From the NCBI GenBank assembly GCA_022824225.1, contig JAJEAH010000048.1:2764-66763 (forward strand): a stretch of 64,000 nucleotides of DNA, given 5' to 3'. Each line of letters starts with the position of its first letter. Positions within the stretch are counted from its first letter, which is position 1. This DNA comes from Chloroflexota bacterium (lineage in GTDB: Bacteria; Chloroflexota; UBA11872; VXOZ01). The position numbers and the translations under genes were made by a program. Of this stretch, positions 4,133 through 10,067 are shown in pieces. The notes below the pieces were generated by a model, which had not been told where the DNA came from, searched no databases, and saw only the letters and a program-made list of their open reading frames with translations.

Positions 4133-7100
4133 CTACAGCCGCCGGTTGGAGATGACGGGTTCGGAGGCGAGGAGGTGGCGGAGGGTGCTGAGGTTGGGGA
4201 GATCAAGGATGTGGGTGAGGCCGTCGTCGAGGGCTTGACGGGCGGGGCAGTGGGCCATGCCGGGGAGCCGCTCGAATTCGGCGGTGGCGAGTGTGTCGAA
4301 GAGGCGGGAGAGGGATTGAAGCTGGGAGGCGGGGAGACGGCGGGGGTCGAGGACGGGCAGGTTTGCGAGGTCAGCCTTTTTCAGTGCAACCCAGCCTCCT
4401 CTTGTGCTAGTCCGCTGGGCCAGTATTGTCAGCAAGCCCAAGCTGGAGTTCATCCAAGCAACCAGCGCCTTCTCCATGGCCTCGGCTTCAACGGTGACGG
4501 GCCACCACACGTTTGATAGAACTCGCACTTCCGACTGCATGGCAACAATCCTGGTCGTCTCTAGCCAAAGCCTCTCCGATATAAGGAGCCGACTAGATTG
4601 TTGCCAAAGGTGTTCACCATACCCTGGCCGCTGTCCGCCTCTTGGCTTTACTAGTGGCGAAAGATAGGCGTCAGGCGAACACGTCATGGTCTTTCTTTGC
4701 TCCGTGTCGTGACCTTCAACCATAGGATAGGCTGTAACCGAACTCGTCCTATCGAACCCATCAACCAGTCTCCGTCTGTCAGGGCCGATTTCACCAAGTT
4801 CCCGCAGTTTGCACAGCGGAATGCTGGCGGTTGACGGCTCGCCGGGGACCCAGACTTCTCCATCATCCAACAGGCGCGCGGCGCTCCTTAACACGTCGGC
4901 GCGGGCGAATTGGACGCCGAACCACTGCTTGCCGGCCAGGTCTGGTTCCGGGATGGAGACCACTTCGCCTACGTCCTGGCCGTCCACTCTCAGTAGCGCT
5001 GTGCCGGATTCTTCCAGTTCTGCCGGGGGCGTTTCGCTGACGGCCTGCGCGGCGCGGTGGGCGTCCACGATGCCGTCCGGGTTGTGCCAGAGGTTGACGA
5101 AGGTGGTGCGGGGTGAAGATGGGTGCTCGCCCCGTATCGCGTACGGGGCAGGCTTTTCGTGTGACTCGTCACTCCGGCGGAGGCCGGAGTCCAGGGCACG
5201 CGGAGAGGATGGATTCCCGCTTGCGCGGGAATGACGGTCACTTTCTGGTGCGCGGGAATGACGGTCTGCTCCTGGATTCCGGTTTTCACCGGAATGACGG
5301 ACTGCCTCTGGATTCCGGCTTTCGCCGGAATGACGGAACGAGGCGCCGGTATGACGGGTTGATGCGCTGGCGCGGCGCGTGGCGATGAGCAGGGCTTCCG
5401 AGAGGTCGGTGCTGTCCGAGAAGTTCCAGCGTTGGGGATCGTGGGACGCAATCACCATATCGAGGGTGAAGTCCTGCTCGATCAAGGCACGGGTCTGCGC
5501 CCAGGAGGGGCCGGTGCAGACGGTGAGCGGCAGCACCAAAGCCAGCCGTCCCTCGCCGGGGAGCAGGTTAGGCGAAACGGCCGCCACGAACGCCGCGCCG
5601 AGACCGGCGGTGGCGGAGGCCTGCCGCGACTTCAGGCGGCGCGCCAGTTCGTCCTGGAGCTTGCGCCGTTCTCCCGCCGGCAGACTGCCGAACAACAGAT
5701 TGCCGCCCACGGAGCGCGTAAACGGCGGATTCATGATCGCCAGGTCGAGCTTGGGCAGCGTGGCTTTCGCGCCTTCCGCCGTGCCGCGCGCGCCGCTGCC
5801 CGCCACCTGCGCCACGTCGCCGCTGGTCACGCCGGTTTCCTGCGGGGAGAGCGCGTGCTGCACCGGCGCTTCAGTCGTTCCCAGGAAGTCCAGCGAGCCG
5901 AGCGACACGCGCTCACTCTCCACGCCCAGGGGCATGACGTAGAGGTTCATGCGGTCGAACTGGATGTGCGGGTTGAGCATCGCGAGGCTGGTGGCGGCGA
6001 AGTGAATGGCGGAAAGCTGCACGTCGTAGCCGTGCAGGGCTTGTTCCACCATGGCCTTGTGCAGCGCGGCGGCGCGCTTGCCCCCAGCGGCTTTGTGGCG
6101 GCGTTCCGCTTCCGCAGCCACCGCCATGAGCAGCGTCCCGGTGCCGCAGGCCAAATCGGCTACGCTGAGGGAGCCAGGAAACGTGTGGTCGCGCCAGTCA
6201 ACGCCCGCCGGCCAGTTGTGAAAGACCAGCCGTGTCAGCAACGTGGCCGCGGGCACTGAGGTGTAGTACGCGCCAGTAAACTTGGCGTCGGACAAGAGGG
6301 TGTGGAAGAGCCGCCCCGAGAGGTCGTGGCCTTCCACGTTGCGCGTCTCCGCTACTGCCTTGACCAGGGGCAGGATGACGGGCGTGCGCACGTCGGCCGG
6401 CCCGTCCTCGAGCACCGCGAGAATCTCGGCCGCCAAGGCAAAGACCGGCACGTAGTCGATGGTGTCGCAGATGAAGCGCCAGGTTTGCCGCAGGCTGGGA
6501 ATGCCCTGCCGTGAGGCTTCGCGCACCGTTTTCACGTCATCGTTGACGGCGGCCAGGCGGTCCTGGAACGCCAGCGCGTTGAAAAGCGCCAGGCAACCGA
6601 TGCGCAGCGCGGCGGCGCGGTTCTTCTCCTGGTCGGTTTCGGCTATGAGGTCGGCAATGCGGCGGGTGATGCGCTCGTGTTTATCAAGCCGGTACACCGC
6701 TTGCTCCAGCGCGTAGCTGATGGATTGCGCGGCGGCTTCCACCTGGTCCGTGACCTGCAACTCCAGGGGCAAGGTGCGCAGGTGGTCGGCGAGATCGGCG
6801 ACGGAACCGGTCCGTATCTGGCGCGGCGCTTGCGGCGAAGCCTTGGCCATCTCGAGCAGCGTCGGCAACGTCGCCAGCCACCACTGGAGGTCAGCGGCTT
6901 TCTCCAGTTCCGCTTGGGTATCCTCCGCATGACGCAGCCGTTCGGGGTAGAGCACGCCGAGCACGGCGAGCGCCTCGGGAAAAGCGGCGCGGCGTTCCTG
7001 GAGTTGGGCCTCCAGAGAACTCTCCGAACCCTCCCACTTGCACTCCAAGAGGATCAGGCCGCTGCGCAAGTTTATGCGCACGTCGGGCGCGCCTCGCCGG

Positions 7101-7210
7101 CTGCGGCGCTCCGCCTTGGCCGGAACGCCGCGCTGCGAAAGCAGAAGGGCCAGGTGGACGTTTACTTCCTCTTCGCGCGTAGTCTCTGTTTCTTTTGCTC
7201 TGCTTGCCAT
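4133..7210 (-). CDS. Type IIG/IIL-like restriction-modification fusion (PD-(D/E)xK nuclease + gamma-class N6-adenine MTase + TRD) with in-frame repeat insertion
   Basis: N-terminal APDVRI...LLECKW; GAYYTS, motif I DLACGTGTLL and motif IV IMNPPF; TRD-like C-terminus (AWMNSSLG...DLANLPVLD); 1025 aa. Confidence 0.88.
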   Translation of the reverse strand: MASRAKETETTREEEVNVHLALLLSQRGVPAKAERRSRRGAPDVRINLRSGLILLECKWEGSESSLEAQLQERRAAFPEALAVLGVLYPERLRHAEDTQAELEKAADLQWWLATLPTLLEMAKASPQAPRQIRTGSVADLADHLRTLPLELQVTDQVEAAAQSISYALEQAVYRLDKHERITRRIADLIAETDQEKNRAAALRIGCLALFNALAFQDRLAAVNDDVKTVREASRQGIPSLRQTWRFICDTIDYVPVFALAAEILAVLEDGPADVRTPVILPLVKAVAETRNVEGHDLSGRLFHTLLSDAKFTGAYYTSVPAATLLTRLVFHNWPAGVDWRDHTFPGSLSVADLACGTGTLLMAVAAEAERRHKAAGGKRAAALHKAMVEQALHGYDVQLSAIHFAATSLAMLNPHIQFDRMNLYVMPLGVESERVSLGSLDFLGTTEAPVQHALSPQETGVTSGDVAQVAGSGARGTAEGAKATLPKLDLAIMNPPFTRSVGGNLLFGSLPAGERRKLQDELARRLKSRQASATAGLGAAFVAAVSPNLLPGEGRLALVLPLTVCTGPSWAQTRALIEQDFTLDMVIASHDPQRWNFSDSTDLSEALLIATRRASASTRHTGASFRHSGESRNPEAVRHSGENRNPGADRHSRAPESDRHSRASGNPSSPRALDSGLRRSDESHEKPAPYAIRGEHPSSPRTTFVNLWHNPDGIVDAHRAAQAVSETPPAELEESGTALLRVDGQDVGEVVSIPEPDLAGKQWFGVQFARADVLRSAARLLDDGEVWVPGEPSTASIPLCKLRELGEIGPDRRRLVDGFDRTSSVTAYPMVEGHDTEQRKTMTCSPDAYLSPLVKPRGGQRPGYGEHLWQQSSRLLISERLWLETTRIVAMQSEVRVLSNVWWPVTVEAEAMEKALVAWMNSSLGLLTILAQRTSTRGGWVALKKADLANLPVLDPRRLPASQLQSLSRLFDTLATAEFERLPGMAHCPARQALDDGLTHILDLPNLSTLRHLLASEPVISNRRL
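5129..5358. repeat. Cluster of dRS3/RPE-like palindromes (family A) inside the RM coding sequence
   Basis: Units at 5167-5194 (inverted), 5210-5237, ~5250-5264 (half), 5272-5300, 5308-5336 and ~5343-5358 (half), plus GCCCCGTATCGCGTACGGGGC at 5129-5149; translated as repeated RHSGESRNP-like peptides. Confidence 0.9.
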
Positions 7211-7439: not shown

Positions 7440-8255
7440 CTAGCACTTCGTCTTGAACAACCGCGCCAGGTTCTCGCCGAGGATTAGTTTCTTTTCCGCT
7501 TCGGTGATTGGGGACAGGAGCACGCGGCCGAGTTGGTAGGTGGCGCAGGTCCAGGGCATATCGGAGCCGTAGAGGATCTTGTTCGCGCCGGCGAGGCGCA
7601 CCATTTCGGTGAAGTCGCCGCGGTAGCCCACTGAAGCCGCGGTATCCAGGTAGACGTTCGGTTCTTCCGCCGCCACCTGCACCAGATCCAGGCTGCTCTT
7701 GGGACTGCCGCCGGCGGCGTGGGCCACGATGAAGTGGGCGCCGGGATATTCGCGGGCGATGCGGCGCAGCGTCGCGGGCGTGCCGGTGCCGTGGCTGATG
7801 AGGGGCAGGCGGTGGCGGTGGGCCAGCTCGAACGCGGGCACGTAGCCGGGGCCGTCGAAGGGATAATTGGCCGTGCCGGTATGCAGCTTGATGCCCACCG
7901 CGCCGGCATCCAAGCAGCGCTGCAACTCGTCCCGCACCAGGTCCGCCTCGTGGGGATCGGGCACGGCGTAGGCCAGCAAGCGGCCGGGGAACTGCCGCGC
8001 CGCCGCCAGCGAGATGTCGTTGCCTTCCCGCATGTCCAGCAAGATTGCCATAGAAGAAAAGACACACGCCTGGTCCATGCCCACGCGGTCCATGGTGCGC
8101 ACCATGCCCGCGGCGTCGTTGAAGGTCTGGTAGAAGAGCGCGGTGGGGCCCACGTGACAGTGGTTGTCGATGACCAGCGTGCCGTGGAGCGGCGTGCCGT
8201 CCAGGGCCTGTTCGCGAAGTGACGAGGTGGGTGCGGTGGGAGCGCCTGCTGCCAT
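7440..8255 (-). CDS. Amidohydrolase_2 family metal-dependent hydrolase
   Basis: IDNHCH, GIKLH, ISHG, IVAHA, NVYLDT and KILYGSDMP motifs; start reassigned to ATG 8255 (GAGG SD). Confidence 0.9.
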   Translation of the reverse strand: MAAGAPTAPTSSLREQALDGTPLHGTLVIDNHCHVGPTALFYQTFNDAAGMVRTMDRVGMDQACVFSSMAILLDMREGNDISLAAARQFPGRLLAYAVPDPHEADLVRDELQRCLDAGAVGIKLHTGTANYPFDGPGYVPAFELAHRHRLPLISHGTGTPATLRRIAREYPGAHFIVAHAAGGSPKSSLDLVQVAAEEPNVYLDTAASVGYRGDFTEMVRLAGANKILYGSDMPWTCATYQLGRVLLSPITEAEKKLILGENLARLFKTKC

Positions 8256-8347
8256 GGGTGCCTGCCTCACGTTCGTGGTGTGTGTTGGCTCGTCGCGGGG
8301 TTGCTGGCTATGATTATACCCCGCGGCGCGGCCAAACCGTCTGGGGT

Positions 8348-8741
8348 GGCGGCCCCCTGCGCGGGGAACGGCCTGGCTGAAGTCAACGTCGGCATACGCG
8401 CCAAAGGTGGCGGCCCCCTGCGCGGGGAACGGACGTCCGCTGCCGCCTCTGCGCCCGCCGCGTCGGCGCGGCAGTCCCATTCGCGCCGGACGACGCCCAT
8501 TCCGTCATTCCGGCGAAAGCCGGAATCCAGGGCAGCCCCATGCACGCGAGGCGGCGACAAGATCAAGGTGCTGCACGGCCTGCGCGCGCAAAGCAGCCCC
8601 ATGCACGCGAGGCAGTGACGCACTGCCGCCAGTGGGTCTTTGCCCCACCCCTGGCAGCCCCATGCACGCGAGGCGGCGACCTTGCTGCTCGTGCTGCTGA
8701 GCAAACGCTCAACGGCGGCCCCATGCACGAGACGCGCCGCC
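8348..8741. CRISPR. Degenerate orphan CRISPR-like array (type I-E-like geometry): 7 repeats of ~28 bp, 6 spacers of ~33 bp
   Basis: Repeat starts at 8348, 8409, 8470, 8531, 8592, 8653 and 8714 (exact 61-bp period). Copies 4 and 6 are identical (GGCAGCCCCATGCACGCGAGGCGGCGAC); copies 1-2 read CCGTTCCCCGCGCAGGGGG on the minus strand, resembling I-E repeats. No cas genes in the window. Confidence 0.6.
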
Positions 8742-8999
8742 AATCCGGCTGCGCCGCCCTCTTCCCCAGCGGCACGGAGCGCACCGGCGGCGCGCGCCAA
8801 GCGGTTTGTCTGCCGCCCTCCCGCTGTGCGCCGCATTCCCGCACGGGCCAAACTATGCGTCCGGCCCGCTCCGCCATCCGGCAGTTTCCACAGCGCTGAT
8901 TACCCTTCGTGGTACGATACACCGGTAAGTTCAATGCGCAGCGCATCCGCGAGTATAGCGCCAGTGGTCCCGCTGGCCGCCGCTCCCAAGAGGGATTCT

Positions 9000-10067
9000 A
9001 TGGAACGCACGAAAGACCCCTCGGAACACGCCAGAGAACCGACGACGCCGACACCAACGCCGCCACCGACGCGCGCCGAGAACCTGCAGGAGCGCACGCT
9101 CGACGCCGGCGAGTACGTGGCATCCCTGCCGGAACGCCTGGTGCGCAGCGCTGCCGCCGGGGCCGGCGGCCTGGTGCACGAGACCTCCGAGGTCGTGCTG
9201 CCGCCGCCGATACGCCACTCGCAACTCTATCAGTCCACCATCGGGCGCATGGTGCGCATAGTGGTGGAATTCGTAGGCGGCGTGTCAGGGCCGGAAGCGG
9301 CTGACGCGATGGCGATACAGGACCTCGCCGTGCGCAAGCTGGCCGGCAACGCGGTAGAGGTGGCGAGCGTGGTGGCCGTGGGGTGGTCGCCGCTCTGGAT
9401 GCTGGCGGCGGCGGCTGACGTCACCGGCGGCACACGGGCGTATTTGGACGCTTTCGTGAAAGAACTCGAAGACTCTCACGTGCTGCCGCCGGACGCCAAC
9501 GTTTCCTCCGTGGACGAACTGCTCGCCGCGCTGGGGAACACCTCCGGCCAAATGGCCGATACAATTGACATCCCGCCGCTGGCGCTCAATGACATGCGCA
9601 CGAGTTTGCAGGAATTTCGCAGCCACGCCGGGCAACTCCCCGACCCGCGCGACCTCACCCAGATATTCACGGAAATGAACCGCGCCGCGGCGGAACAGAA
9701 CCGCTCGCTGTTCACGGTTTCGTCGCTCGTCGCCGCCGGAGCGGTGCAGGCGGGCATCCAGCTTGGCAACGTGCATGTCTTTTCGTTTTATCGGGGCTCG
9801 CTGAGCACAATTCGCGCGGAAGGCGTGCCGGCATATCTGCAACGCATCAGCCAACCGTACCTGGAAGCCGCCGCGCTGCACCTGCGCCCCAGCAGCAGCA
9901 CCCACACCCAACGGCTCCTCCGGCGCTTTCTCACCCGGCGCTGGCGCAAACGCTCTGCCAACGAGGGCTCTCCCCCCGCAATAGAGGCGACAAAGACGGA
10001 CAGGCCGGAGGAATCCCGCGCCGGCGACCCCGAGGACGATACCACGCGCCAATCGCAAAGGCCATGA
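9000..10067 (+). CDS. Hypothetical, mostly helical protein
   Basis: Host-like codon usage from ATG 9000 (AAGAGGGA SD); the upstream extension in the ORF track runs through the repeat array and is probably spurious. Confidence 0.75.
   Translation: MERTKDPSEHAREPTTPTPTPPPTRAENLQERTLDAGEYVASLPERLVRSAAAGAGGLVHETSEVVLPPPIRHSQLYQSTIGRMVRIVVEFVGGVSGPEAADAMAIQDLAVRKLAGNAVEVASVVAVGWSPLWMLAAAADVTGGTRAYLDAFVKELEDSHVLPPDANVSSVDELLAALGNTSGQMADTIDIPPLALNDMRTSLQEFRSHAGQLPDPRDLTQIFTEMNRAAAEQNRSLFTVSSLVAAGAVQAGIQLGNVHVFSFYRGSLSTIRAEGVPAYLQRISQPYLEAAALHLRPSSSTHTQRLLRRFLTRRWRKRSANEGSPPAIEATKTDRPEESRAGDPEDDTTRQSQRP

Follow-up and report, generated by a model that had tools for sequence, protein, structure and literature searches.

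The window analysed here is a 64,000-nt stretch of a Chloroflexota genome (G000: 3.37 Mb, 87 contigs, 95% complete). Toward its left end, a methyltransferase-like gene and an amidohydrolase gene lie on the minus strand, followed by a small array of direct repeats and then by a conserved gene on the plus strand (Table 1). The array has an exact 61-nt period across seven repeat units, each of 28 + 33 nt and all in one register. The third slot, between repeats 3 and 4, reads CATTCCGTCATTCCGGCGAAAGCCGGAATCCAG. At the left edge of the window, an open-ended minus-strand frame (2-691) matches the PADLOC SoFic model (2.5e-62), so a defence-type gene lies near the methyltransferase-like gene.

Table 1. 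Features of the array and its surroundings (window coordinates)
Feature	Position	Strand	Remarks
1025-aa methyltransferase-like gene	4133..7210	-	NPPF and DLACGTG motifs in the translation
REP cluster read in frame inside the 1025-aa gene	5200..5345	-	includes 5308-5340 and 5272-5304
Amidohydrolase gene, left of array	7440..8255	-	Pfam Amidohydro_2, 1.1e-26; orthologues in 16/16 genus genomes
Promoter-like site pointing into array	8285..8314	+	1 site found, 0.1 expected in shuffles
Repeat 1, D2 type	8345..8371	+	27/27 same as repeat 2
Repeat 2, D2 type	8406..8432	+	27/27 same as repeat 1
Repeat 3	8470..8497	+	directly 5' of REP; 20/28 to repeat 4; intermediate between D1 and D2
Slot 3 of array	8498..8530	+	CAT (3 nt), then one 30-nt REP unit
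CGTC-1-type REP proper	8503..8530	+	predicted hairpin; family features as in the available text of PMC3733652
Repeat 4, D1 type	8531..8558	+	begins at the base after the REP tail
Repeat 5, D1 type	8592..8619	+	25/28 to repeat 4
Repeat 6, D1 type	8653..8680	+	28/28 to repeat 4
Repeat 7, D1 type	8714..8741	+	23/28 to repeat 4; 3' half divergent
Conserved gene, right of array	9000..10067	+	no family found (Pfam, NCBIfam)

Taken in order, the seven units match the repeat at 8531 at 18, 17, 20, 28, 25, 28, and 23 of 28 positions. Read on the plus strand, the array would probably end with repeat 7. The promoter-like site overlaps a -10-like motif of the divergent amidohydrolase gene, and this motif is conserved in relatives.

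By its architecture, the array is CRISPR-like: the direct repeats are regular, the spacers are unique and of constant length, and the six non-REP spacers are single-copy in the genome and mutually unrelated. The genus relative G009 carries an array of 37-38 repeats with the same 61-nt period, along with a complete type I-E operon (Cas3, Cse1, Cse2, Cas7, Cas5, Cas6e, and Cas1, by Pfam). Of 36 spacers in this active array, 0 are REP-like. Six of the seven window units align better to the G009 I-E repeat in the plus orientation. The D1 repeat has an ungapped identity of 17/28 to the G009 repeat, and of 12-14/28 to the I-E repeats found on another contig (C47) of the window genome. Canonical G009 and C47 repeats fold a 6-bp hairpin with a 4-nt loop, the type of substrate used by Cas6e; D1 and repeat 3 fold no better than shuffled sequences, and D2 retains 4 bp.

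The nearest repeat relative of D1 was found by scanning metagenome contigs for two D1 cores 61 nt apart, which returned four loci (L031-L034); the same pattern gave 0 matches in the genome-contig scan. One of these, L033, is an array of 13 repeats of 28 nt with 32-33-nt spacers, and its repeat agrees with D1 at 21/28 positions overall and at 17/18 at the 5' end. The L033 contig is phage-like, with terminase and portal genes, and none of the L033 spacers matches the window genome. Within the 4.5 kb viewed around it, the L033 array occupies about 1836-2565 (stored strand) and its spacers 8 and 9 differ at one base; a 541-aa TnpB-family gene lies directly upstream on the same strand. The other three loci were set aside: L031 and L032 are satellites of 20-21 nt rather than arrays, and L034 contains two repeats only. 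Virus-borne mini-arrays were reportedly described by Medvedeva et al. in 2019.

When 8200-9000 was searched against Rfam at E <=10, no family of CRISPR repeats came up; the three matches obtained were weak and unrelated. Compared with 50,697 phage and 72,556 plasmid records, the non-REP spacers gave nothing better than E 0.1. It is concluded that the array is CRISPR-derived and degenerate, with I-E-like geometry and without an I-E-type repeat sequence or hairpin. Very improbably, the array would have no CRISPR ancestry, and would be a tandem or mosaic repeat that mimics CRISPR geometry and includes the REP as one variable part. Such an origin would suit the absence of adjacent cas genes and of an Rfam family, the poor repeat hairpins, the little room for a leader on the left, and the wealth of tandem hairpin-repeat arrays in this genome and its relatives. 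It fits poorly with spacers that are unique and mutually unrelated; with an exact 61-nt period, as in the I-E arrays of G009 and C47; with the 21/28 identity of D1 to the repeat of a genuine array; and with related strains that differ by a whole repeat-spacer unit (see below).

The element in slot 3 is a REP of the CGTC-1 type. Its unpaired CGTC head (8503-8506) is followed by an 8-bp stem (8507-8514 with 8519-8526) that begins with A-T pairs, a GAAA loop (8515-8518), and a CCAG tail (8527-8530), as read from sequence and predicted fold. The fold has an energy of -13.6 kcal/mol (z -4.4), equalled by 0/200 shuffles. The available text of Di Nocera, De Gregorio, and Rocco (2013, PMC3733652) describes CGTC-1 tagged REPs, which include Neisseria dRS3 and Rickettsia RPE-6, by these same parts: a CGTC head; an 8-bp stem beginning AT; a 4-nt loop; and a CCA tail. 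The described elements are dispersed, form inverted pairs, and have copies inside genes, and that text assigns them no dedicated transposase. Head, stem, loop, tail, dispersed multicopy occurrence, inverted pairs, genic copies, and lack of a dedicated transposase are shared by the element studied here. For the last point, the genome has no match to the Y1 transposase family (Y1_Tnp, PF01797), for which 6/14 control genomes were positive.

The genome contains 92 REP copies at <=4 mismatches, several visibly arranged as inverted pairs. Searched alone at <=3 mismatches, the 27-nt core has 65 matches, of which 16 are exact; the same pattern reversed, used as a control, has 0. The consensus of the 92 copies spans 30 nt (8501-8530: TCC plus the 27-mer), and the slot-3 REP is identical to it at 30/30 positions. 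Beyond these limits the flanks of the copies are unrelated, with flank columns agreeing at 29-52%. According to a DNA search of 40 relatives, the REP occurs widely across the genus and two related families as well. Just 1/92 copies, that in slot 3, lies between direct repeats spaced by 61 nt in a non-REP context; other high-scoring contexts were rejected as a tandem REP cluster on contig C29 and one chance case at 18/28. Among the CGTC-1 copies described in the available text of PMC3733652, none is placed as here, in a CRISPR spacer slot.

The placement of the REP is exact. The element begins 3 nt past repeat 3 and the last base of its tail immediately precedes repeat 4. Both bordering repeats are complete, and no bases are left over between the REP and repeat 4. 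The original prediction was that the element occupies one slot with the 61-nt register undisturbed, and that an ordinary insertion would have lengthened the unit. Both statements are borne out: a 30-nt insert would make a unit of 91 nt, and the REP-holding unit (8470-8530) is exactly 61 nt, as are the others. Simple insertion of a REP is therefore excluded. The same prediction ranked the repeat just upstream among the most decayed, and rightly: 8470-8497, at 20/28, is the most divergent of its type.

Slot 3 had also been noted as a near-copy of a repeat inside the neighbouring methyltransferase-like gene. The slot (plus strand) indeed matches the reverse complement of 5308-5340 at 32/33 positions, with 1 mismatch, and that of 5272-5304 at 30/33; 0 such matches are expected from 100 shuffles. 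The 32/33 value is made up of the 30 consensus positions plus 2/3 flank positions. The copy at C16:2085-2111, on another contig, likewise reaches 32/33 with its flank, so the gene copy is not a special source. The caution that it need not be the source was thus justified, and the description of the element as a multicopy self repeat holds for 92 copies. A genome-wide count of the 33-mer gave a divided answer: near matches are many, and exact ones are absent. Exact copies of the 27-nt core lie at 15 other sites; over the full 33 nt, two of the 91 other copies match at 32/33, five at 31/33, and none at 33/33. Near-identical chromosomal sites outside the array, as expected of a self-targeting spacer, are thus present, and no source locus for capture is identified since no genomic copy matches all 33 nt.

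Flanking sequence adds little. Beyond the 33-mer, the gene copy shares 7/15 positions on the left and 4/15 on the right without gaps, or 7/10 on the right with a 1-nt shift. As a case for the gene copy as source this was rejected as weak and post hoc, the 7/10 level being reached by two copies. A PAM had been sought in the flanks of the matches; none is readable, and the trinucleotides beside the 91 copies are heterogeneous.

The gene that carries these copies (4133-7210) has methyltransferase-like motifs, NPPF and a SAM-binding-like one. Its family matches are weak: PADLOC MTase_II (7.1e-8) and REase_MTase_IIG (2.5e-4), and NCBIfam MAD2 at 2.3e-4, far below the cut-off. No Pfam family was found at 1e-3, and no nuclease domain was identified. 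These motifs and matches hint weakly at a Type IIG restriction-modification enzyme. At least four REP units (5200-5345) encode a segment of ~70 aa between the methyltransferase-like and C-terminal parts. Orthologues in most genus genomes are frames of 953-989 aa beside the amidohydrolase gene, and align to residues 1-~615-646 and ~696-1025; because most of them do not have it, the REP segment is a lineage-specific in-frame insertion. G006 is the exception, with a 1070-aa frame that aligns throughout the 1025-aa gene.

Five public runs contain this stretch, all of them sponge metagenomes and none recorded as RNA. Four (X1-X4) were compared, by way of Logan contigs; for X2-X4 the comparison extends to those parts that the contigs cover. 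In 4/4 runs the contigs stop or start inside the REP and none bridges it. In X1, the probable source run, contigs covering 7700-8529 and 8504-9500 show no differences from the window and overlap by 26 nt of REP. In X2, from another study, and in X3, left contigs end at 8529/8530 and right contigs begin at 8504/8506. The right contigs of both have 0 differences through a D1 repeat, followed by 33 letters absent from the window, and then by repeat 4 onward. Both strains therefore carry one extra 61-nt unit (repeat plus 33-nt spacer) directly after the REP. Differences between strains by whole repeat-spacer units are the behaviour of a CRISPR array.

The left contig of X2 is more divergent. It has 50 substitutions, at least 31 of them within the 139 nt at 8357-8495. 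Most of spacer 1 differs from the window, repeat 3 is changed at many positions, and one change occurs at equivalent positions of repeats 1 and 2. None of the X2 substitutions listed falls within 8498-8530. The slot was to be checked in related strains for a shorter unit lacking the element; no such unit was seen, and X2 and X3 hold the REP in the same slot. The REP was thus already in place in the common ancestor of strains from two studies. To the right, the gene at 9000-10067 has a 12-nt tandem repeat near its 5' end (9045-9072). Here X3 is longer by 18 letters, added after 9047, so that a Pro/Thr-rich stretch is polymorphic in length.

Contigs that break inside a repeat raise the question of an assembly artefact: contig ends misjoined at a shared REP, or sequence collapsed between two REPs. 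The failure of any Logan contig in the four runs to bridge the REP, and the X1 overlap that consists of 26 nt of REP only, would allow it. It is nevertheless extremely unlikely. The two flanking genes are neighbours in 16/16 genus relatives; array repeats keep the exact 61-nt register to the left and right of the join; runs from a second study show these junctions again, on either side; and a 30-nt repeat should be easily spanned by ordinary reads.

The amidohydrolase gene and the 9000-10067 gene are adjacent in 16/16 other genus genomes, with gaps of 269-893 nt between aligned starts. None of the 16 orthologous gaps contains D1- or D2-like repeats or this REP, and when 8260-8900 was searched against the DNA of 40 relatives, the REP part alone was matched. 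The whole array is missing from those relatives, so they offer no species-level comparator with an empty slot. In many of the orthologous gaps (L015-L030) there are hairpin repeats of several other families, some of them in tandem arrays. The array is lineage-specific, and lies in a region where small repeats often land. The gap differs in every species, its conserved parts being short motifs beside the two genes; in L030 it holds a tandem array of ~50-nt units.

Together, these results suggest that the array once acquired a REP copy as a spacer and is now an inert relic, a reading given a probability of about 55%. In this model, Cas1-Cas2-type adaptation machinery would have acquired one of the genome's own CGTC-1 REPs as an ordinary 32-33-nt spacer, and placed it in a small satellite array of I-E-like type (28-29-nt repeat, 32-33-nt spacer, period 61). 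The unit would have been inherited since, which would account for its presence in related strains. The model is favoured because it accounts together for a register kept exactly, for flanking repeats left whole, and for a REP that stops where repeat 4 begins. The proposal that a self repeat had been captured as a spacer thus stands as the best reading, on the strength of register and intact repeats; we infer entry of the element by spacer acquisition.

Several observations weigh against capture. On a uniform-sampling estimate, a spacer that holds a whole 30-nt REP should be very rare. A scan of 185,579 species (one genome each, one REP orientation, canonical repeat ends) looked for CGTC-1 REPs lying at most 8 nt past the end of an I-E repeat and gave no array case; its sole match was rejected as an ordinary intergenic REP. 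If the leader lies on the left, two spacers were added after the REP spacer, and a lethal self-targeting spacer should have blocked later additions unless interference was already off. The absence of an Rfam family on the array and of a PAM-like flank beside the REP copies also counts against it. Finally, the REP looks young or homogenised beside its surroundings, with its 30/30 match to consensus and no listed strain difference, although the perfect match could stem from gene conversion among REP copies.

This last point leads to the main alternative, which is unlikely overall: the REP arrived secondarily in a dead array, by its own route or by gene conversion, and overwrote a former spacer. 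The 61-nt length of the unit would then have been kept by chance, or because the route works that way. The contrast between a 30/30 REP and neighbouring repeats at 20-25/28 is what this would produce, as is a REP with no listed strain difference next to 139 nt upstream with at least 31. The prior for arrival by the element's own route is raised by the orthologous gap, which collects other hairpin repeats in many of the 16 relatives. REP units of the same family also sit in frame inside the neighbouring gene. CGTC-1 REPs can lie inside genes and, in the available text of PMC3733652, have no known transposase, in keeping with the absence of a Y1 transposase from this genome. Insertion should, however, have added 30 nt to a unit that is exactly 61 nt, the flanking repeats are complete, the REP abuts repeat 4, and it was in place in the common ancestor of strains from two studies. 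We know of no equal-length replacement mechanism for REPs, which further counts against secondary arrival.

If the REP was captured, the array would today be inert: its processing hairpin is lost; it has no adjoining cas genes; and a lone cas3 with mini-arrays remains on another contig. No cas genes lie beside the array, and no Cas1 or Cas7e family matches were found in the genome; since this is 95% complete, absence of cas genes is not proven. In tblastn searches with seven G009 Cas proteins, 1/7 found a homologue: Cas3, with 60% identity over 886 aa. This cas3 (C47:16359-18935) is an intact frame of 865 aa in which the HD and C-terminal Cas3 domains are confirmed. Directly behind it comes a truncated I-E repeat, then a pair of canonical repeats with 61-nt spacing, a VG64-family lipoprotein-like gene, and a second pair of repeats with the same spacing. 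Neither Cascade nor cas1 genes are present at this locus (C47:16341-19935, equal to L041 4342-7936), and cas3 is all that it shares with the cas locus of G009. It looks like an I-E locus stripped of Cascade, cas6e, and cas1-2 by deletion. Across the genus, Cas1 occurs in 1/17 genomes and this Cas3 in 2/17. With D1 matching the C47 I-E repeats at 12-14/28, the window array may have been served by other Cas proteins, which is a further point against capture. Downstream of the cas3 remnant, units that resemble hairpin repeats form two tandem arrays, at L041 8430-8975 and 13361-13657, whose periods are 22 and 27 nt.

A spacer aimed at dozens of the genome's own REPs may have favoured the loss of effector genes and the decay of the repeat upstream, or may have gone along with them. 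In 2010, Stern et al. are said to have linked self-targeting CRISPR spacers to degenerate or incomplete CRISPR-Cas systems. The earlier suggestion that the self spacer could have selected for loss or drift of the system fits the decay, with cas3 and mini-arrays left over and the hairpin lost; the spacer may or may not have caused it.

It had also been proposed that the slot provides a working guide against REP-containing loci, the methyltransferase-like gene among them. This gained no support: effector genes for it were not found, and the REP copies have no common PAM-like flank. In the broader form of this idea, the array is transcribed and an effector acting in trans, from an unbinned cas locus or a mobile element, loads the REP guide; the guide would regulate REP loci or transcripts, or serve as a decoy that draws the RNA-guided complex of an invader to the many REPs of the host. 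Such a role is very improbable, with cas3 as the only effector gene found in the genome, no processing hairpin in D1 or repeat 3, and L033 spacers that do not match this genome. What invites it is the promoter-like site pointing into the array; the conservation of the REP unit between strains with differing flanks; the likeness of D1 (21/28) to a repeat on a phage-like contig with terminase, portal, and TnpB-family genes; and a recent preprint. The available text of that preprint reports that orphan guide RNAs, on satellites, target E. coli REPs as decoys and so blunt VIPR, the RNA-guided silencer of a phage (10.64898/2026.10.15.759431). A more specific version, put forward on analysis, is slightly less probable still: the array would have been kept for a decoy or regulatory REP guide that diverts a mobile-element effector accepting D1-type repeats onto ~90 harmless REPs.

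None of the ingredients is new by itself, neither self-targeting spacers nor orphan arrays nor CGTC-1 REPs. A spacer slot filled by a complete REP with ~90 chromosomal copies is another matter: none of the papers returned by full-text searches describes one in the text available. The available text of PMC8616872 links self-targeting spacers to incomplete CRISPR-Cas systems. The locus resembles those systems in that the slot sequence occurs elsewhere in the chromosome, effector and adaptation genes are missing, and a neighbouring repeat is mutated. It differs in that the target is a dispersed ~90-copy repeat rather than a single gene or prophage, and in that the spacer is almost wholly one repeat unit, with no 33/33 source and no nameable PAM. 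The same text also mentions type I-E arrays, orphan or satellite, that lie far from cas genes, as well as mini-arrays carried by viruses. As in the orphan and satellite arrays, adjacent cas genes are absent, the period is 61 nt, and whole units are gained or lost at the level of strains; unlike theirs, the repeats here match the I-E repeats of the genus and genome at 12-17/28 and have no Cas6e-type hairpin.

The nearest functional precedent is the set of REP-directed orphan guides in the available text of the VIPR preprint (10.64898/2026.10.15.759431). There, as here, a guide-like unit with no effector gene matches a multicopy host REP. The VIPR guides, as that text presents them, have arrays of 5-nt units with a tail, use another effector, reside on phage satellites, and have experimental support, whereas the present locus is a CRISPR-like chromosomal relic known from sequence alone. 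Most likely, the locus preserves, as a relic, a spacer derived from the genome itself; this is unusual, yet fits what is known of self-targeting and CRISPR decay.

If the REP did enter as a spacer, the locus would be a natural CRISPR memory against a host repeat that is dispersed over dozens of chromosomal sites, all of them targets together. It would also preserve the end of such an accident: effector genes lost, flanking repeat mutated, array frozen. Should the REP instead have replaced a spacer, it would point to an unknown route of equal-length replacement for CGTC REPs; should the array act as a decoy, it would do in CRISPR-array form what satellite solo guides do when they steer phage VIPR complexes to E. 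coli REPs. Moreover, a locus with public strain variants allows two questions to be asked: do REP hairpins bias spacer uptake, and can orphan arrays with REP guides act as decoys?
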